NCBI RefSeq assembly: GCF_006345805.1
Contig: NC_043013.1
Coordinates: forward strand, 15,562,001-15,626,000
Reading direction: 5' to 3'
DNA length: 64,000 nt
From: Octopus sinensis
Lineage: Eukaryota
Of the stretch, positions 1,041-63,194 are shown piece by piece. The position numbers and the translations under genes are program-made. Below the pieces are notes generated by a model, which was not told the origin of the DNA, made no database searches, and saw nothing but the letters and a program-made list of their open reading frames with translations. Numbering within the stretch: the stretch's first letter is position 1; each line of letters starts with the position of its first letter.

Positions 1041-1162
1041 CCTTCCCTTGTTTGTGTAGCAAACACCATTTTGGAGTTTCGCTCCATAACAGTCATACTT
1101 CTGACATGCGCAAGATTCCGGTTGGTAGTCGGCAGGACACTTCTGATTGGTAGTAGTTTTTT
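1041..1162 (-). CDS. GON/WSC/EGF protein exon 9 (Cys-rich module); gene continues beyond window start
   Basis: CTCTTCACCAG acceptor, GTATGC donor; (E)KTTTNQKCPADYQPESCACQKYDCYGAKLQNGVCYTNKGR, open and phase-compatible with exon 8. Confidence 0.75.
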
Positions 1163-5131: not shown

Positions 5132-5235
5132 CTGTTCTCGTTTGACATCGGGATCCTGAAAATCCAGTGGGACATTGACAAAAGAATCCATCGCTGGTCG
5201 TTGCAATGCATATTCCGAAAGGAGCACAGATTTTT
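5132..5235 (-). CDS. GON/WSC/EGF protein exon 8 (EGF-like domain)
   Basis: Long poly-T acceptor, GTTAGT donor; joined to exon 7 gives PCKQKICAPFGICIATTSDGFFCQCPTGFSGSRCQ with six-Cys EGF spacing; phase 2/1. Confidence 0.9.
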
Positions 5236-7146: not shown

Positions 7147-7270
7147 TGTTTGCATGGGTGAGTGGGATTTAATTGCAGAAACAAGAGATCCCTTTCTTGT
7201 CCGTCAGTCATGACGGGGTAGCATTTAGCTGGGTATCCACCACACTTGCCTATTCGGTAGTGAGATTCTC
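7147..7270 (-). CDS. GON/WSC/EGF protein exon 7 (end of GON domain + start of EGF)
   Basis: CTTTCTTTTCCAG acceptor, GTAACT donor; (G)ESHYRIGKCGGYPAKCYPVMTDGQERDLLFLQLNPTHPCK resembles GON C-terminal G.CGGY...C.P.....L.L; phase 1/2. Confidence 0.85.
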
Positions 7271-7314
7271 CTGGAAAAGAAAGCAAGTGTATCAATAATT
7301 AGATATGTAGATGT

Positions 7315-7357
<43 letters not shown>

Positions 7358-7519
7358 ACACACACACACGCACATACACACACACGCACATACACACACA
7401 TATTTACAAACACATGCACACACATAGATACACAATTATAGACACAAACAGAAGCTCAAGCACACACACACACACACAATCACTTGCATATACACATAAA
7501 CATATACACACACGAACAA

Positions 7520-7935
7520 GGCGGCGAGCTGGCAGAAACGTTAGCGCGGCGGGCGAAATGCTTAGCGGTATTTCGTCTGCCGTGACGTTCTGAGTTCAAA
7601 TTCCGCCGAGGTCGACTTTGCCTTTCATCCTTTCGGGGTCGATAAATAAAGTACCAGTTTCGCACTGGGGTCGATGTAATCGACTTAATCCCTTTGTCTG
7701 TCCTTGTTTGTCCCCTTTGTGTTTAGCCCCTTGTGGGTAGTAAAGAACTAGGTATTTCGTCTACCGTTACGTTCTGAGTTCAAATTCCGCCGAGGTCGAC
7801 TTTGCCTTTCATCCTTTCGGGGTCAATTAAATAAGTACCAGTTACGCACTGCGGTCGATATAATCGGCTTAATCCCTTTGTCTGTCCTTGTTTGTCTTCT
7901 CTGTGTTTAGCCCCTTGTGGGCAGTAAAGAAATAG
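7520..7935 (+). mobile_element. tRNA-derived SINE family A, full copy plus tandem partial copy
   Basis: GGCGGCGAGCTGGCAGAA..GAGTTCAAATTCC (A/B boxes)..GCCTTTCATCCTTTCGGGGTCGAT..GCCCCTTGTGGG..AAAGAA; second unit restarts at about 7751. Confidence 0.85.
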
Positions 7936-8709
7936 GTATGTATAATCTTAGTTACTTAGTTAAGGGTTCTAATTTGGAAAGTCAAATCTGTTGTGTTAGA
8001 TTGGTGTGGTACGGAAGATGCGATGTTTGAATCCAACAGACGATGCTACATTTTCACTCGCTTTCTACTGTAGTCGATGTATGTATATGTAAGTATGAAT
8101 GTGTCTAAATGTATGCATAATAAAATGGCTTGAACGATATCAGATAGACCCAATAAGTTGCCTATTTTTATTTTTCGAACTGAAAATTAAATGTATGATG
8201 CAATTATATATGATTCGCAAATATATTTATCCTTTATCTTTTGTTTCGGTCATTGGACTGCAGCCACCCTAGGATACCATCCCTGAGGATTTTACTCAAA
8301 CAAATCAACCTCACTATGTATTTTTGAAGTTTAGTAAAAAGTCTATCGGTCTCTTAAGCCGTACCTGTAAATAAAGGCGACATAAACAAACCAACATCGG
8401 TTACCAAGTGGTAGAAAAAGGAGACAGGCACTTGCACAAAGACAACCACAAACACACCCACGTACTTACACATGCGCACACACGCACGTACACATATATA
8501 TGCAACGGGCTTCTACAAGTTACCCCCCCCCCATTCAAATTCACTCCCAAGGTATTGGTCGGACCGGGGCTATTGAAGAAGACACCTGCCCAAGGTACCG
8601 AGCCCGAAACTATGTGCTGGCTAAGACTACTTCTTAAGTAAACATAGCCATGCCAACGGCCTCCTTAAAAATTTGAAACAGACATCCCCTTGAAAACAAA
8701 CATAAAAAA

Positions 8710-8925
8710 AAGGAGAGGGGCTTTCTCCGTCCGGGTTGCGGATCCGTGGAATAAACTGCCGGACGAGATAGTGAAGATGCCGACGACCGTTCGGTTCAAA
8801 GTCTCTCTTGACCGGATATGGCCTAAACTTTTTGTATGACCATCCTCCCTGTACATAACTCCCTGTCCCCCTACATGTCCTTGCTTTCTGAGTCAATAAA
8901 AATTAAATTAAAATTAAAAATTAAA
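8710..8925 (+). mobile_element. 3' end of the same LINE family
   Basis: GGAGAGGGGCTTTCTCCGTCCGGGTTGCGGATCCGTGGAATAAACTGCC matches the 11.4-kb copy; AATAAA and (TTAAA)n tail. Confidence 0.8.
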
Positions 8926-8995
8926 AAAAAAAGAAAATCACGAAACAGAGAAATTATACACGCGATTAATATTTAAAGCCTTTGCTATTACATAC

Positions 8996-9125
8996 CTGCA
9001 GTGTAAACGGAGAGGGCTAAGTAACCACCACATTTTCGATAGCGTTGACCACTGCAGCGCGCGGTACACCGTTTGGACACCCCCCCTTTGCTGTAGCTAT
9101 TTCCACAGGAACAGAATCTTGCATT
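8996..9125 (-). CDS. GON/WSC/EGF protein exon 6 (WSC domain, C-half)
   Basis: CTTCCTTTGCAG acceptor, GTATGT donor; NARFCSCGNSYSKGGVSKRCTARCSGQRYRKCGGYLALSVYTA matches WSC C.CG......C...C.G.....CGG.....vY; phase 0/1. Confidence 0.9.
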
Positions 9126-9229
9126 CTGCAAAGGAAGACGATAATAGTACAATGGATAATCTCTAGTGCATGAGTACAAACATATAGGCGGATATCTTAG
9201 TTTCAATCAATTTGCTTATAGCTACTCGC

Positions 9230-9262
<33 letters not shown>

Positions 9263-9425
9263 ATAAAATACAAAATGGGACAAGAACGCAAAACATCCGG
9301 ACAACCAGGTGATACAAAAAGGGACAACAAAATATCCAGATAGATGATACAAAAAATAACAAGGTCGGGTCATTCATCCTCCAATGTAGTGCTGAGCACT
9401 CATTCTCACTCATCGATATTAGAGT

Positions 9426-9479
<54 letters not shown>

Positions 9480-10152
9480 CTAGGTGAACTGTATTGCTGA
9501 CGGTCAAGTGACTTCGTCACGGATACAGTTCAGAGGATTATTGTAGCATACTGTGGTACAACTTGATAGACTAAGATTGTTGACAGCTGAGTGTCTTGGT
9601 CATGGATCTTTGGATGTATCTGCATTATGGGCACGTTATATCGTCCTTATTACAATACAAATCCCTGACCCGTCGTCTAGGCTGGTTAATACAGCTCAAT
9701 TTTCTTGGAGACGGCCATTGTGTGTGCGTTTGTGTGTGTGTCTGTGGGGGGGGGCGGTTTGTGTATGTGTGTTTGTGTGTGTGTGCATCCCTTTTATTTT
9801 TTCTTTCCTTGTGTCACTCTTTTATTTGCGGCTATTTTTACCCCCTCTATTTCTTTTATCGGTGTCTTTTGCCAAACTGCTATGCTATGGGAACGTATAC
9901 AAACCAACACCGGTTGTCAAACGGTGGTAGGGAAACAGACAAACACAAAGACACACATACACACACACATGCGCGCACGATAGGCTTGTTTCTGTTTCCG
10001 CATACCAAATCCACTCACAAGTCTTTGGTTCGCCCGGGGCAATAATAGAAGACACTTCACCAAGAAATTTATACCGCGCAGTAGAACAAATATTGAAATC
10101 GCGTGGTTGGGAAGCAAGCTTCGTACCACACAACCATCTATGCTGAACTTAC

Positions 10153-10283
10153 CTCCAGACCAGCATAATAATATCCGCCCTTTTTGCAACTAAGAATGCA
10201 TTTTTCTATGGTCATATGTAAACTTGACCAGCGCAACATTGGAAGAACACTTTTTCTGATGTCTTTAAAGCAACCTATATATT
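10153..10283 (-). CDS. GON/WSC/EGF protein exon 5 (WSC domain, N-half)
   Basis: Poly-T-CAG acceptor, GTAAGT donor; (E)YIGCFKDIRKSVLPMLRWSSLHMTIEKCILSCKKGGYYYAGLE matches WSC YiGC..D...L......MT.e.C...C...gy.YAGl; phase 1/0; not annotated in this frame in the ORF track. Confidence 0.9.
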
Positions 10284-10536
10284 CTGAAAAAAAAAAAAAA
10301 AATAATAATCATAATCCTTTCTACTCGAGGTACAAGGTCTGAAATTTTGGGGAAGGGGTTAAGTCGATTACATCGACCTCAGAACTCCACTGGTACTTAA
10401 TTTATCAATCCCGAAATGATAAAAGGTGAAGTCGATGGAATTTGAACTTAGAACTTAGACTGGCGAAAATTTGCCGGAAAATTTCAGACCTTGAATAGTA
10501 GAAAGGATTATATATATATATATATATATGTGCATG

Positions 10537-10602
<66 letters not shown>

Positions 10603-10701
10603 TAAATTAGAGACAAAACCACTATTATGCAAATCAAACAAAGACTCAAGCCAATACATAAATTAATTTATATTATTTAGAAATTTAACAATTATTATTA
10701 T

Positions 10702-10764
10702 CCACTACGATCGTTTCATGTCTTCTTTCATCACATCTTTGAGTAGTAGTCATTCTTCAGGTGG
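10702..10764 (-). ncRNA. Type I hammerhead ribozyme motif (minimal, palindromic stem III)
   Basis: Minus strand: CCAC CTGAAGA ATGACT...AGACAT GAAA CGATCG TA GTGG; stem II has A.A mismatches; GUA triplet. Confidence 0.72.
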
Positions 10765-11301
10765 TTTCAAAATCTAAAATATAATCAATATTTTTAAGAT
10801 ATAAAATAATAAATATACATATATATATATTATATATATATTATATATATATATATATATTATATATATATATATGAATGTGTATATATATATATATTAT
10901 ATTAAATTCTGTGTGTTGTATGTTGCACATGCGCTTGTGTGTATGGGCGCAGTTGCAATGACGAGGCTAAAGATATTGAGACAAATGCCATTTTCTACAG
11001 CCTCAGGTCAACCGATAAATTGTGAGTGTAATTGGGTTCATAGGAACTACATAGAGGCATGCTGCTGTTGAGAGCCCCTTCGGTCATGACTGACCATGAG
11101 ATTGCACCTAGAAAGTTACCCTCCGAGGCACAAGTCCGGGCAAGGTTGTTTATAGAAGACCAGCAGTCGGCCATGCATACCATCCTCTCCTCCCCGCGCC
11201 ACCGATGTTATCCAAGGGAAAGGCAAAGGGGCCGATACAGCTTGGCACCAGTGATGTCGCAACTCATTTCTACAGCTGAGTGAATTGGAGCAATGTGAAA
11301 T

Positions 11302-11843
11302 AGTTAGTTAGTTAGTTAGTTAATTTGGCTCAAAAGCAAATAGCAAGGCCATGTAGGGGGACATGGAGTTAAGTACAGGGTGGTGTTCATGTAAAGAGTT
11401 CAGGCCACTTGAGATCCAGGGAGGCTTTGAACAAAGCGGTCGTTGGCATCTTCACCATCTCGTCTGGCAGCTTGTTCCATGGATCCGCAACCCGGACGGA
11501 GAAAGCTCCTCTCCTTCGATTGAGATGAAATCGTCGCAGGTAGAGCTTTTCGGAATGACCCCGCAGCCGACGCTCTGGAGCAGGAGTGAAGAACAGCTCT
11601 TTCGAGAGGTTACACTTTCCGCTTATGATGTTGTGGGCGAGAATGAGATCACTACGGCGGCGGCGTTTTTCAAGAGAATAAAGGTCGAGCGTCCTCAGCC
11701 TTTCTTCGTAGGACAAATTTTTGAGACCATGAACCATGCGGGTAGCCAGCTTCTGGACTCTTTCGAGATGCTGTATGTCTTTTAGGAGATAAGGAGAAGA
11801 GGCTTGAATCCCATACTCCAATATGGGTCTCACCAGGGTGACA
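11302..11843 (-). mobile_element. 5'-truncated CR1/L2-group LINE 3' end with (TAAC)n tail, nested in a SINE
   Basis: RPILEYG...DIQHLERVQKLATRMV..LSYEERL..LDLYSLEKRRRRSDL...LRGHSEKL...FSVRVADPWNKLP; SINE halves at about 10995-11301 and 11846-11951. Confidence 0.9.
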
Positions 11844-12023
11844 TAAATAAAGTGTCTTGCTTAAGAAGACAACACGCAGCTCGGTCCGGGATTCGGACTC
11901 GCACACTCCCGATCGTAAGCTCGACGCTCTAACCACCGAGCCATGCGCCTTCATAAGAGGCACGGTAACACTAGTATAAAAATATGCCTTGCAACTCTTG
12001 CAGGCACTTAGTCATATACTTAC

Positions 12024-12196
12024 CGTACTTGCTTAAGATTACCGTCCCATTATTTGCGCCATCTTGGAACTGTCCGTCCCATTTCCATCTCGCTTTCTGG
12101 TGTATTATAAACGGCGTTCCAGTCAGATCAATACTGAATACGCCATGGGGTCGACATCGCGGTAAGGGACTGAACATGCCACCAGCTGTTCCGTAA
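12024..12196 (-). CDS. GON/WSC/EGF protein exon 4 (GON domain)
   Basis: TTCTTTTTTATTAG acceptor, GTAAGT donor; (S)YGTAGGMFSPLPRCRPHGVFSIDLTGTPFIIHQKARWKWDGQFQDGANNGTVILSKY has GON yGtAG....C.P.G.FSIDL.GT...W..G; phase 2/1. Confidence 0.9.
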
Positions 12197-14429: not shown

Positions 14430-14583
14430 CTGATATTGTTAGGTCCATATGTGTGAGCAAAAGTGAAGTCATTTCTCATTATGCTGTTAGCAGCAACGTC
14501 GAAAGCGACTTTGGTGAATTCAGTTCGTCCACGTTTTGAGTAAAGCTGGCGTGGATTATTTTGGTAACATTCATACGGGAGAC
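14430..14583 (-). CDS. GON/WSC/EGF protein exon 3 (GON domain)
   Basis: TTTCTATTTCAG acceptor, GTATCG donor; (S)LPYECYQNNPRQLYSKRGRTEFTKVAFDVAANSIMRNDFTFAHTYGPNNI matches GON G.T.F.KV..D.....DFTFA; phase 1/2. Confidence 0.88.
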
Positions 14584-18756: not shown

Positions 18757-18840
18757 TAATGTAGTCGTACACAGACGCATAATTTTTAGATTTTCCCGCC
18801 GGCAAAGTCAGGTATTCTTTCGGATTGTTAGTTTTAAAAC
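18757..18840 (-). CDS. GON/WSC/EGF protein exon 2 (GON domain)
   Basis: TCTTTCTATTTCAG acceptor, GTAAGT donor; (G)FKTNNPKEYLTLPAGKSKNYASVYDYI has the GON hallmark PKEYLTL...NY; phase 1/1 fits both neighbours. Confidence 0.9.
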
Positions 18841-24774: not shown

Positions 24775-26940
24775 CTTACTGGTTTCATGGGGGCCATACT
24801 GGAGCACCACATTTCATTGTTTATGGGTCTCCTTTCTGTATTGTTCTTGGTGAAGAAGCGAGTTAGACGGCACTGCTCTTGTTTGTGCCTCCTACCCAGA
24901 TGCCCCTATGGGTTCATCTGGGATTTCAGGTTGAAAGTAGACCAGGTGATTTTTGAAGGTTTCCACATCTACACCTTGCAAATCTCTAAGGTTGTTTGGC
25001 AGGATGTGAAACAGTTGCGGTCCCCTGAAACTCAAGCTGTTGAAATACTGGGTCGGTCCTAATCCGAGATTAAGAAGACAGGATCTTTGGTATTATGCAG
25101 TGCCGTCCAATTCGGTGGTTGGTATAGCTTTTAATTCATAAGTTGAGAGCTAGTTCGTTCAAAATCTTCCGTATGTATACCACTGCATATCCTTCTGGCC
25201 TTCTCTATAGGGAGTAGAGCTTCAGCTTTTGTGGCCTCTCTCAGTAGCTCATGTGTTTCACCAAGTAAGTCTACTTCGTGTTGTGGCACTAGATTGTCAA
25301 AAATTCCACCATTAATTTGACACTCTGCGGGAGCAATAATCCAGATAACTGAGAACAAACGTCCTCCATAAGAGTTGCAAGGTATCCTTATTTCTGCTTC
25401 TGAATGATCTAAGGATCCATCCAGCTACTCGTCTGCACAGTGTTACCATCTTGGTAATATGCACATGGAATATTGCATCATTTACTCATATGGATTCCCA
25501 GCTCACGCACCGATCCTAACTCTGGGATTGCATTGCTCCCCTGGTCCTATGTATTCCGATTGTAGTCTGTTTATGGGTCCAACAAGGGAGTGCTTGAAGC
25601 TTATCAGCATTGAACTGCATGTTATTTTCAGCAGCTCATTTGTATATTGTATGCAGGTCGTTTTGCAGTTTTAGTATGTCATTAGGGTCGTTGACCGTTT
25701 GTGATACTTTTGTATCATCAGTATAGCTGGTGAGAGCGGCTGACTGTACGATTGATTACAGATCTGAGTGAGCGACCACAAACTATAATTTATCTTAGTA
25801 TAGTTCTCTGAGGAACTCCGCTGCGGATTGATGTCTTCCCAGAAAGAGCACCTGGCTGCAAGTTTTTGACTTTTGTCATTTAAAAGCTGTGCAATCATTC
25901 TCCCAGTTTTCAAGTGGTATCAAAGTCATGTAGTTTGTGACATATCCTATGATCAACTTTGTCAAAAGCCTTGGCAAAATAGAGATGTATCACATCCACA
26001 TTTGAATGGTTGAACTGCTGTTTCAGTATCCAATCGTAATGTTGTAGTAGTAGTGTGAGGCAGCTCCTCCCTGGGTGGAACCCAAGTTGTGTATTTGTGA
26101 GCAAGTTATTCTCTCCGAGGATCGGTATCAGTATCCTTATGACAACGCTTTCCATGACCCTGATAACATGTTAAGTCAGAGAAATAGGCCTTTTAGTATT
26201 TGCTCTGATTTCTCCTTTATGAACAGGGCATATGATACCCTCTTGTAACAGTTTTGGAAGTTTGCCACATGCACATGCAAGAAAACTCTGAATAAGTATC
26301 TACAGTGGTTTTGCAAAAGAGATTTCTTGCATGCTTTTAGAACCGCCAAAATCCACCCGAACCCCTTGTAGAATTTGAGCCCATCTCATCAATGGCCGAT
26401 ATTACATTTTCCTCTTCTTTGTCGATGTAGTCGACAGTTGCCTTTTCCCTATGTAGGTCTGCAGTGTTGACAAACTCTTTAGACTCGCTTACTTTCCCGT
26501 TTCCCAATTGAGAGTTGAAGACTCTCTAGAATTGTTTATTTAGTACTTCACATAGCCTCTTGAGTCCGCAGCTAGCGAGCCACCTTCTTCAAACAGTGGT
26601 TCTATCTTGTAGTGTACCGAGGCAGCACCTTTCGCGAACTTGTAGAAGGTTTTAGGATTCATTCATATATTTTCCACCGCCTGGTCTCTCTATCTACCCT
26701 TTCCTTTCCATGGGAGAGTTTGAGTTTACTTTCGACCTATAAAAGTCTCTATTTGAGGAGGGATTTCTTGCTGTCATTAAATTATTTAAGCGATTGGAGA
26801 TCTTTATTCCCTTTCTCATAAAGACTCTCCTGTCTCGAGGAATGATGCTTTTGTATGTAGTTGCTCTCTTTTCTTGGACAATTTTAATGCATATGGTTCG
26901 CATTATTGACATGAATTCTTTAAGTTTCGTATCAATGTTT
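24775..26940 (-). mobile_element. Degraded LINE ORF2 (reverse transcriptase)
   Basis: Fragments QLGFHPGRSCLTLLL..DVIHLYFAKAFDKVDH with many frameshifts. Confidence 0.75.
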
Positions 26941-34223: not shown

Positions 34224-34425
34224 CATGGCAATAAAGATTAACCGCATGCCCAGACGAAGTCATTATCTGGTATATACCATCTGCAGCACTGCTTCCCAAG
34301 TCGATCATAGCTTCCTCGCAAGAATGGTAGACCTTTCCGTAAACCGCAAAAGAAGTAAAAGCTAAAATAAGGTAAAGCCAGATCCATGTTTGGCCGATGC
34401 TGTTATATTTGCGAAACACGTTCAT
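34224..34425 (-). CDS. Secreted GON/WSC/EGF protein, first coding exon: signal peptide + start of GON domain
   Basis: ATG at 34425; MNVFRKYNSIGQTWIWLYLILAFTSFAVYG (basic n-region, hydrophobic h-region) then KVYHSCEEAMIDLGSSAADGIYQIMTSSGHAVNLYCH, matching the GON N-terminal pattern sC.e...DG.Y.i....v.lYChG; GTAAGT donor, phase 1. Confidence 0.85.
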
Positions 34426-40902: not shown

Positions 40903-42502
40903 CAGTTGCGGCCAAAATGTTCAGAACGGCATTGTTTTTGTCAGAAAAGTAGATATAAGTTTTTAATAAAGTTGTTTTATATTCTATAATTTTCACAGAC
41001 AATAAATACGATATTAATTGGCATTGTCTGAGATTTTGGTGTAATTTGAGTGGATAATACAAAAGTTATGGATGATATAGCGATTTACTGCAAAACCCAT
41101 TGCGGCCAAAATGATCAGAACGATTGAAAAAAATAACAAAATAATCAAAAATGACAGAGAATGCTGGAATTATTTAATATTTAGTGTGAACCCCTTTAGC
41201 TTCAATCAAACTTTGACATCTTCGACTGCATGAGGAAATTAAATTTTTAATTTCTTCCTGAAGGGCATTCCATAATTGCTTGGTTGTTTTAGGATTTCTG
41301 GCTTTCGAACTTTCTCCAAGAATATCCCACACATTTTCAATAGGATTGAGATCTGGGCTTTGAGCAGGCCAATCCATAACAATAACCTTTTCAGCCTTGA
41401 GGAAGTTCATGACCACCTTAGCCTTGTGACATGGGGCATTGTCCTGCATGAATATGGGCGGTCACTTAGTTGAATTTCTCAGCACAGGCAAGACATGATC
41501 TTTTACAAGTTATTTATAAACTCCTGCATTTACCTTTCCGTGTAATCAAACCAAAGGGCCCACACCATCTCCAGATATCACCCGCCAAACCATGATACTT
41601 CTTCCACCGAATTTAACACTAGTCTTAAGGCATTTTAGGCGACAATTTTTCACCTACATTTCGTCGAGCGTACCTTTTCCCATCTGAGCCAAATAACATA
41701 GACTTAGATTCATCACTGAAATGCACCGTTTGCCATTTTTCTTGAGACCACAACACATGTTCGGTTGCAAAGGTAAGACGACACTTTTTATTCTTGAAGC
41801 TGATCAGTGGCTTCACTGCAGGTGCTCTTGCTTGTAGGTCATGTCCAACTAAACGACGAGACAGATTTTCGAGATAAAGTTTTCTTCAGTACAATGCTCA
41901 TTTCCCGAGAAACAGCAGCAGCAGCTTTAAATCTGTCCTTTTTAACCAACTTTACCATAGCACGATCTTCTCTCTTGGTTGTTTTCTCGGCCTACCTGAG
42001 ACTTTCTTGGCTTCACAGAACCACAATCATCGTAGACCTTAAAATACCGTGAATAACACTTTTTGACTTAACAATCTTTGCAATAGACCCAATACTTAAA
42101 TTATCCTTCTTTCGAAGCCTTAATAATCTGCTGACGAATTAGTAACGGAGTAAGTGGCATTGAATTAACAAAGTACACTGAAGATATTCTTACGGCGTGT
42201 TTAATAAATGAACCGTCACGTAAACAAATTAAAAACATTAGAGTTCGTTGGTTAAATATACTAAAACATGGAGTAAAAGCAACCGTTCTGATCATTTTGG
42301 CCGCAATGGGTTTTGCAGTAAATCGATAAATCATCCATAACTTTTGTATTATCTTCTCAAATTACACCAAAATCTCAGACAATAACAAATAATATCGTAT
42401 TTATTGTCTGTGAAAATTATAGAATATAAACAACTTTGATAAAAACTTATATCTACTTTTCTGACGAAAACAATGCCGTTCTGAACATTTTGGCCGCCAC
42501 TG
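40903..42502 (-). mobile_element. Full-length Tc1-family (IR/DR type) transposon with frameshifted transposase
   Basis: TA-flanked CAGT...ACTG ends; about 220-bp TIRs each with outer and inner GCGGCCAAAATG.TCAGAACG repeats; minus-strand VHFSDESK, QDNAPCH, WPAQSPDLNPIENVW motifs. Confidence 0.92.
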
Positions 42503-43765: not shown

Positions 43766-43865
43766 NNNNNNNNNNNNNNNNNNNNNNNNNNNNNNNNNNN
43801 NNNNNNNNNNNNNNNNNNNNNNNNNNNNNNNNNNNNNNNNNNNNNNNNNNNNNNNNNNNNNNNNN
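43766..43865. other. Assembly gap (100 N)
   Basis: Exactly 100 Ns, a usual placeholder for a gap of unknown size. Confidence 0.99.
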
Positions 43866-62782: not shown

Positions 62783-62952
62783 CTACATAATACATCCGGT
62801 ATTAGCTGGCCAATCACAAGATTGTATTCTGTCGTTCCATGCTGTACCAGGGGAACACTTATAACGGAATGGAACCTGCCAGACACATTGGAAAAAGCTG
62901 GTGCAGTCTCTGACGTCACGGTAGATGCCAAACAACGAAGGACATTTGAAAA
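62783..62952 (-). CDS. Terminal exon encoding a chitin-binding type-2 (CBM14/peritrophin-A) domain
   Basis: TTCTCTCTCCTTCAG acceptor; (V)FKCPSLFGIYRDVRDCTSFFQCVWQVPFRYKCSPGTAWNDRIQSCDWPANTGCIM-stop; six Cys with C..Gt.w......CDWp....C; minus-strand AATAAA near 62583. Confidence 0.9.
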
Positions 62953-63194
62953 CTGAAGGAGAGAGAATAGGAAACAAATAAAAACGATATTTTGTTGTTT
63001 CAATAAAAGATGGTAGTTTACTTTAAAATACTGCACTTAAAATAGTGTGTCTAAAACAGCGTACTTTACTTCAAAACGAACTATTTAAAATACAGTACTT
63101 TTTTTTATTTATACTGAAAATAAAACACTGTACTTAAAACTGTACTTTAAAAATTGTACTCAAAACCCAGTACTTAACACACTACTTAAAACTT

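Follow-up and report, generated by a model that had tools for sequence, protein, structure and literature searches.

How does a complete domain come to lie inside another one, and does it remain there as a fixed part of the protein or as an optional one? This question is raised by a minus-strand gene in a 64,000-nucleotide stretch of the Octopus sinensis genome (contig NC_043013.1, positions 15,562,001 to 15,626,000; the whole stretch is called the window, its letters being numbered from 1), where two exons encoding a WSC domain stand between the exons of a GON domain. A first-pass annotation of this DNA had described the WSC exon pair as a skippable cassette, placed there by exon shuffling and allowing two isoforms. 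We give a probability of about 0.78 to a structural and evolutionary account in which the WSC domain is an old and fixed insertion into the GON domain of a receptor, a GON tail beyond the insert completing the domain. The exons of this gene in the window are the following:

34224..34425, minus strand: exon 1, start codon, hydrophobic signal-peptide-like stretch and beginning of GON; agrees with the N-terminus of P0001 (an Octopus bimaculoides fragment) and of P0169 (a transcript-derived protein), and alone gives no Pfam match.
18757..18840, minus strand: exon 2, GON, 84 nucleotides, phase 1-1; Pfam GON 34-66, E 3.5e-6.
14430..14583, minus strand: exon 3, GON, phase 1-2; Pfam GON 81-117, E 1.9e-6.
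12024..12196, minus strand: exon 4 (E4), GON as far as the insertion point, phase 2 in and 1 out; Pfam GON from 121, E 5.5e-6, and RNA contigs.
10153..10283, minus strand: exon 5 (E5), first half of the inserted WSC, phase 1 in and 0 out; Pfam WSC 1-46, E 1.6e-7, and 7/7 covering contigs.
8996..9125, minus strand: exon 6 (E6), second half of the inserted WSC, phase 0 in and 1 out; Pfam WSC 30-82, E 8.5e-6, and joints 9125-10153 and 7269-8995 with CT..AC ends.
7147..7270, minus strand: exon 7 (E7), GON C-terminal tail and first EGF cysteine, phase 1 in and 2 out; Pfam GON 172-193, E 0.072, our own GON profile, and predicted packing against the N part of GON in P0169, an orthologue.
5132..5235, minus strand: exon 8, EGF-like domain; Pfam EGF E 2.4e-4, and a contig loose end at 7147 that equals the exon 8 start.
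1041..1162, minus strand: exon 9, Cys-rich module with a probable donor at 1041; tblastn with orthologues and P0170 (the RefSeq protein of this gene), the donor being placed from homology, not from reads.

The positions, phases and canonical splice sites that the first-pass annotation had given for E4 to E7 were all recovered, with GT-AG ends at all four positions on the minus strand. Together, E5 and E6 comprise 261 nucleotides, i.e. 87 codons with phases 1-0-1 and 8 cysteines, and phase-1 introns lie on both flanks of the pair, as in a class 1-1 module. The WSC profile PF01822 was covered over its full span (1-46 and 30-82), with the eight cysteines and the CGG motif; a complete WSC domain inside GON, as had been claimed, is thus encoded. 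Dropping E5 or E6 singly shifts the frame, and removing both preserves it. E7 alone matched Pfam GON only weakly and failed the cut-off (E 0.072), and a whole-length match to GON (PF08685) was obtained only when E7 was added to E1-E4. We also built our own GON profile of 185 positions from 89 intact GON domains. The form in which E4 and E7 were joined by script matched positions 1-184 of 185 (150.5 bits), and the natural WSC-containing form matched 1-159 (137.1 bits) with a separate tail match. Since the profile spans 1-184/185 once E7 is joined to E4, E7 is the GON C-terminus, and the joined exons give an uninterrupted GON, two points on which the first-pass annotation was right.

Evidence of transcription was drawn from 20 runs containing part of the stretch, none of which is recorded as RNA, spliced joints revealing the RNA. 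Eight transcript assemblies were placed on the gene, of which 7 cover E4-E7 (5 studies, two organism labels) and one, X15, has no cover there. All the covering assemblies (7/7) consist of a single spliced contig of 3.1-4.9 kb in which E4-E5-E6-E7 is unbroken, at depths of 55-435 (130-435 in X1, X3, X9 and X5; 55-412 in X6, X10 and X2), so that PF08685 is not contiguous in this gene: 87 WSC codons lie within GON in 7/7 covering contigs. Breaks at the E4 or E7 boundary were found in none of the seven. The skip joint 7270-12024 is absent from the complete joint table of the X6/X10/X2 run set (15 rows; 2 more were dropped at repeats), and is not among the 15 joints listed, of 15+71, for the X1/X3/X9/X5 run set. 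An alternative cassette is recognised by inclusion and skip junctions together; at the contig level, we found inclusion in 7/7 and skipping in 0/7. In every case in which transcripts of these exons were observed, both WSC exons were retained. The data being assembled contigs, which lose rare variants, they show inclusion as the dominant form, not the absence of skipping.

The gene extends well beyond the window. Orthologues and P0170 map in order, by tblastn, to a series of exons, one of them encoding a transmembrane segment, that extends to some 58 kb beyond the left end of the window, and the left end of the gene lies at about G000:C17:15,503,800. P0170 is RefSeq Octopus sinensis LOC115221051, 1006 amino acids long, and represents part of the gene only. 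It begins at the methionine right after a one-base assembly frameshift in exon 10 (G000:C17:15,560,792-15,560,663, L019), just left of the window, and the RefSeq annotation starts only from this methionine. The frameshift is likely an assembly error, since 6/7 contigs extend 3.5-3.76 kb past E7, the predicted coding remainder being about 3.35 kb. We infer that the product is a type I single-pass membrane protein of about 1,450 amino acids, with the deduced order: signal peptide, GON[WSC], EGF, Cys-rich module, EGF, FN2 half, LamG, glycine-rich region, second WSC, FN2 half, two laminin-type EGF repeats, transmembrane helix and a 56-residue tail. A search with octopus exon 4 detected one gene copy. 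E7 is not the last exon, as it splices to the EGF exon at 5235 (contig loose end), and a first gene model encoding a secreted protein of 413 amino acids with a stop at 1023 was dropped, orthologues and P0170 mapping 55-58 kb further left.

The split GON-WSC-GON form is not confined to the octopus. Word-index searches with exon 4 and with P0001 returned 1 protein each, and the family was recovered by a HMMER search with P0001 (best 150 of 308 matches listed) and a search with the Lottia C-terminal region (20 matches). The GON N part, WSC and tail were found in this order in 14 of the 34 proteins scanned, among them seven named gastropods or bivalves: Lottia, Babylonia, Crassostrea virginica (6 copies or isoforms), Ostrea, Sinanodonta, Dreissena and Mya, the WSC being shortened in the Lottia and Mya models. 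P0169 also has the split form and shares 47% identity with the window model across 395 amino acids. The GON N part and WSC without a recognised tail were detected in Batillaria, a second Dreissena model, a Ciona intestinalis model and an oyster-like fragment, and several further family models start at or past the insert. Among 18 rows carrying the family tail motif, WSC precedes the tail in 16 (window model included), one starts at the tail, and the tail follows the GON N part directly in one, P0032, whose accession falls in the Oscarella (sponge) series; no mollusc GON N part is joined directly to the tail in these rows. Intron positions in other species were deduced from the points where protein models run out. 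The Ciona, Dreissena and oyster-like fragment models stop inside WSC at the octopus E5 donor position, and the translation of O. bimaculoides and of two fragments reads into the intron after E4, which suggests intron positions shared across species.

A Pfam scan of split members reported GON only to about position 160 and did not recognise the nesting. The split form is already present in public databases across molluscs, where it is not described as split, and this partly removes its novelty in the sense of the first-pass annotation. This mollusc receptor is conserved, yet annotation fragments it and mislabels it as ADAMTS9-like or MEGF-like. In the literature, subscription journals being outside our coverage, we found no description of the GON/WSC combination or of the receptor family, nor anything on Oscarella receptor tyrosine kinases with WSC. 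In Crassostrea virginica (P0153-P0158) and Sinanodonta (P0159, P0160, P0163) the family has expanded in tandem, with several loci on one contig each; tandem expansion is frequent in recognition receptors.

The direction of the event was approached through relatives with an intact GON. In the sponge Oscarella lobularis, the proteins P0171 and P0172 repeat the mollusc order GON-EGF-LamG-WSC, with an intact GON and an SRCR-transmembrane-tyrosine kinase end. The skip form made by script aligns to P0171 and P0032 as one piece, and the natural form as two. As expected for a class 1-1 module, the insert is absent from the outgroup form (GON is intact in P0171, P0172 and P0032), and the other full-length GON domains collected are all intact (89/89). 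A tree of the GON N part was calculated on 33 rows, near-copies and most other GON matches being left out. The 11 split rows group on a single branch (91/89) whose sister group is the 3 intact sponge-type rows (90/92 for the two together), and a quick 64-row tree gives the same picture (92). In both trees the Ciona GON N part falls within the split branch, and its insert begins at the same alignment column. Because the sponge relatives and all other sampled GON domains are intact, insertion is the likely direction, not loss; because the sponge relatives share the ectodomain with an intact GON and the split forms are one sister branch, a single insertion, later than the sponge split and earlier than the mollusc radiation, is likely and is also the simplest reading of the sequences. 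On the strength of one Ciona fragment, we infer that it may have occurred in the bilaterian ancestor.

Intron phases suggest exon shuffling as the route, class 1-1 modules inserting as a rule into phase-1 introns (as stated in an excerpt of PMC3927616). A two-exon 1-1 WSC module would have entered GON once by this route, before the mollusc radiation, and would have stayed as a fixed part of the receptor head. The exon shuffling proposed by the first-pass annotation thus keeps its phase-1 flanks, its likely direction and its insert between GON strands in the models, and loses the splice switch. Elsewhere in the octopus genome, contig C1 encodes an intact terminal GON with an intron, in phase 0, at most 2 codons from the WSC insertion site, and two PAN-GON loci on C9 have no intron there. 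The C1 locus (L007-L008, G000:C1:54.356-54.367 Mb), whose GON ends in a stop, is probably an ADAMTS9/GON-1 orthologue. The paralogous C9 loci (L011-L012 and L015-L016, G000:C9:20.35 Mb and 22.05 Mb) comprise a PAN/apple-like exon then an intact GON flanked by phase-1 introns, so that GON, too, resembles a mobile 1-1 module at these loci. A derivation of the inserted WSC (WSC1) from the second WSC (WSC2) of the same gene was unsupported: WSC1 is not nested in the WSC2 clade, the WSC tree is unresolved and the internal intron positions differ. The natural uninserted sponge relative offers a direct comparison for what the insert adds and where GON tolerates insertion; in extracellular proteins, 1-1 module insertion mid-domain is less often documented than between domains.

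How the tail might complete GON was studied by folding the head of the orthologue P0169, in place of the window protein. With a 49-row alignment, AlphaFold gave a predicted template modelling score (pTM) of 0.73, with a predicted local distance difference test (pLDDT) of mostly 85-98 in the GON N part and of 83-93 in the tail, which forms three strands. When the GON N part and tail were folded as two chains, with no WSC, the score was 0.78 against 0.58 for the best control, with contact agreement of at least 68% and a partner pLDDT of at least 64. The mark applied to this comparison is reached by 51/78 solved pairs and 2/108 mismatched pairs; as the N part and tail are two halves of one domain, passing it supports complementation, nothing more. 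In the folding models the insert lies between strands of GON; the tail beyond it is predicted to turn back across the insert and to complete the domain with three strands. No solved GON was found by sequence (best E 0.28, a chance match to a peroxidase) or by fold (no E <0.001; best Z 4.1 to EGF), which does not in itself show a new fold. The first 45-67 residues of GON gave fold Z of 2.2-3.2 to fibrinogen and collagen C-propeptide, a weak likeness. GON-like domains also occur in bacterial or environmental proteins (P0002, P0175 and P0039; Chloroflexota, Myxococcota).

Several alternatives to a fixed, old insertion were weighed. That WSC exons were misplaced by the assembly or belong to another gene has next to no probability left: an assembly frameshift does lie nearby and RefSeq has just the 3' part of the gene, but single spliced contigs of 5 studies (7 runs) give the E4-E5-E6-E7 order, which is therefore real and not an assembly error, and orthologues of other molluscs have the same order. 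We regard it as unlikely that the pair is a regulated cassette, skipped in certain tissues or stages so that a receptor head with intact GON is made. Skipping would be in frame and give a GON matching 1-184/185 profile positions, intact GON is found in the sponge relatives of the receptor, 1-1 modules can be lost through skipping (part of PMC3927616), and minor forms may escape contigs. Against these stand the covering assemblies, 0/7 of which are broken at the E4/E7 boundary, the full table of 15 joints with no skip joint, the lack of a mollusc protein running from the GON N part straight to the tail among the 18 tail-bearing rows, and the strong splice signals of both exons, which must leave together: by a rough scoring matrix, the E5 and E6 donors are among the strongest of nine scored, with long pyrimidine tracts. 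The symmetry of the pair says little, since 4/13 one- or two-exon blocks of the gene are frame-neutral. The two isoforms of the first-pass annotation are accordingly not supported, 7/7 covering assemblies including both exons, no 7270-12024 joint being listed and 16/16 mollusc-type sequences keeping WSC.

A repeated origin of the split form, e.g. in tunicates and molluscs separately, with the GON loop as an insertion hot spot near an intron, is improbable. The intron near the same site in another octopus GON, the Ciona WSC part that does not group with mollusc WSC1 and the lack of members from intermediate phyla among the matches listed would fit it; yet the Ciona GON N part is inside the split branch in both trees, its insert is at the same column, its model ends at the same position in WSC as mollusc introns, and the WSC tree flagged the Ciona join as long-branch attraction. 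Slightly less probable still is a split form ancestral to the receptor family, from which the sponge lineage would have lost WSC by fixed exon skipping. This would need two events against one for a gain after the sponge split, and insertion is required anyway by the 89/89 other full-length intact GON; in its favour, the in-family outgroup is one sponge species and skipping is a known loss route for 1-1 modules (PMC3927616, in part). The fixed, old insertion itself meets several difficulties. Tree support is moderate and Ciona is a long branch, the Ciona WSC part being placed away from the mollusc copies in the WSC tree and its model having no tail. Among the matches listed, the family was not represented in annelids, brachiopods, echinoderms, amphioxus or cnidarians, which leaves a gap between sponge and molluscs. 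A phase-1 intron may have existed at the site beforehand, but the nearby intron of the other octopus GON is in phase 0. On the structural side, the head folds were made with P0169 and not with the octopus sequence, the monomer model has low confidence in WSC (pLDDT 28-69), and the two-chain score is exactly at the mark (+0.20), with one unrelated control at 0.58. Minor skipping is compatible with the data (contigs drop rare variants, tissues are not recorded and 71 joints are unlisted), exon 10 contains the one-base assembly frameshift, and the octopus tail (P0170) has no NPxY, a motif considered below with function.

By profile, the GON of ADAMTS9, ADAMTS20 and GON-1 and that of non-protease GON proteins are the same domain, and GON is also found in numerous secreted proteins that have no protease (part of PMC3338439). 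In ADAMTS9/20 and GON-1 a protease and TSP1 precede a C-terminal GON, whereas octopus-type GON is N-terminal, split by WSC and part of a membrane protein; no metalloprotease or TSP1 Pfam match was found in P0170, P0169, P0004 or P0007. The database names 'ADAMTS9/20-like' on fragments P0001, P0005 and P0008 are misleading. In ADAMTS9/GON-1, the function of GON in the endoplasmic reticulum (ER) is tied to a free C-terminus (same excerpt), and as octopus-type GON has none, the ER-export role need not apply.

An example of class 1-1 module insertion is FN2 into MMP2/9 (PMC3927616, partial text). The present case shares with it phase-1 boundaries and an internal site; it differs in that WSC does not lie between domains but interrupts a folded one, some 35 residues before the end of that domain. 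FN2 repeats interrupt the gelatinase catalytic domain, so this kind of insertion is known. Nested domains are likewise described in Pfam, such as CBS in IMPDH (a portion of PMC4702930), where a discontinuous host also contains a separately folded guest; GON[WSC] differs in being extracellular and intron-bounded. Module insertion at phase-1 introns and nested domains are therefore known kinds, and the GON[WSC] case was not found in print. The WSC of KREMEN1 and yeast Wsc1 shares the 8 cysteines and CGG, and is free-standing there. The second WSC of the octopus protein matched KREMEN1 by sequence (E 1.3e-13) and by fold (Z 15.1, root-mean-square deviation (rmsd) 1.8, 91 aligned).

With MEGF10/11, Draper, CED-1 and SCARF1 the family shares a laminin-type EGF stalk, one transmembrane helix and a short tail often with NPxY, and two family records are auto-named MEGF10/MEG11-like. 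An EMI domain at the N-terminus is the defining feature of MEGF10/Draper/CED-1; no EMI match was found in the 12 + 20 proteins scanned. In contrast to MEGF10/Draper, the family has a large GON[WSC]-FN2-LamG-glycine-rich-WSC head, and the octopus protein has about two stalk repeats and no NPxY. The closest GON outside the split group is that of Oscarella P0171/P0172, which share the ectodomain order and differ by their intact GON, SRCR stalk and cytoplasmic kinase.

As to function, WSC would protrude from the completed GON as the binding head of a cell-surface recognition or uptake receptor. We guess that this head would bind glycans or a protein partner and that the receptor would internalise or adhere to what the head binds; given the EGF stalk and the tail motifs of the family, recognition with uptake or adhesion has about even odds. 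NPxY is present in 11/16 mollusc cytoplasmic tails (5 lineages), 7 of the 11 being near-copies from one oyster, and NPxH in 4. In the sponge form (P0171/P0172) a cytoplasmic tyrosine kinase takes the place of the short tail and would serve for signalling. LamG/pentraxin and FN2 are binding modules. Known WSC ligands include beta-glucan for the fungal lectin SiWsc3 and proteins for KREMEN (according to part of PMC9024836).

Further nesting may exist in the same ectodomain. In the 10/20 family members parsable by pattern, the N and C halves of FN2 are 628-659 residues apart. Against a profile made from just 2 FN2 domains, the joined halves scored higher than all of about 190 random joins in 9/10, the miss being octopus P0170, and the C half alone gave no Pfam match in 2/2 pieces. 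In the octopus, FN2 appears to be interrupted by a stretch of about 640 residues that contains LamG, the glycine-rich region and the second WSC (P0170 residues 115-799, G000:C17:15,547,800-15,517,200, L020-L023), and motifs flanking FN2/LamG are recognisable in the sponge proteins too. In a model of P0170 (pTM 0.55), the alignment with LamG/pentraxin structures begins at residue 138 and ends at about 782 (best Z 22.3, rmsd 2.4, 195 aligned). As this exceeds the 138-304 core, LamG is predicted to be completed by strands from late in the chain, with the glycine-rich region and the second WSC enclosed. These models are leads to FN2 and LamG being discontinuous as well. A tentative extension, to which we give somewhat less than an even chance, is that of an undescribed ancient family of animal receptors nested in the manner of a Russian doll, with WSC in GON, and with the glycine-rich region and second WSC in LamG/pentraxin, itself in FN2. 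The inner nesting would already be present in the sponge kinase form, the bilaterian ancestor would have gained GON[WSC] in a single event, and an endocytic tail would have replaced the kinase. If true, this would provide a dated before/after pair for a module landing within a folded domain. P0171 and P0172 are uncharacterised Oscarella lobularis receptor tyrosine kinases, present in several copies, with a GON-EGF-LamG-glycine-rich-WSC-SRCR ectodomain. Their glycine-rich region beside a kinase is reminiscent of ALK/LTK; the glycine-rich region of ALK/LTK was not among the sequence or fold matches listed, which were filled by LamG and EGF.

Other features were noted in the window. The gene introns contain short interspersed element-like repeats with high transcript depth at 7450-7970 and 10900-11970. 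On the minus strand, a long interspersed element reverse-transcriptase fragment lies at 25913-26170 (RVT_1, E 2e-4), a Tc1-like transposase fragment at 41177-41461 (DDE_3, E 1.8e-12), and a chitin-binding peritrophin-A exon of a neighbouring gene at 62786-63022 (CBM_14, E 9.9e-12). An assembly gap of 100 N is found at 43766-43865, upstream of the GON[WSC] gene.

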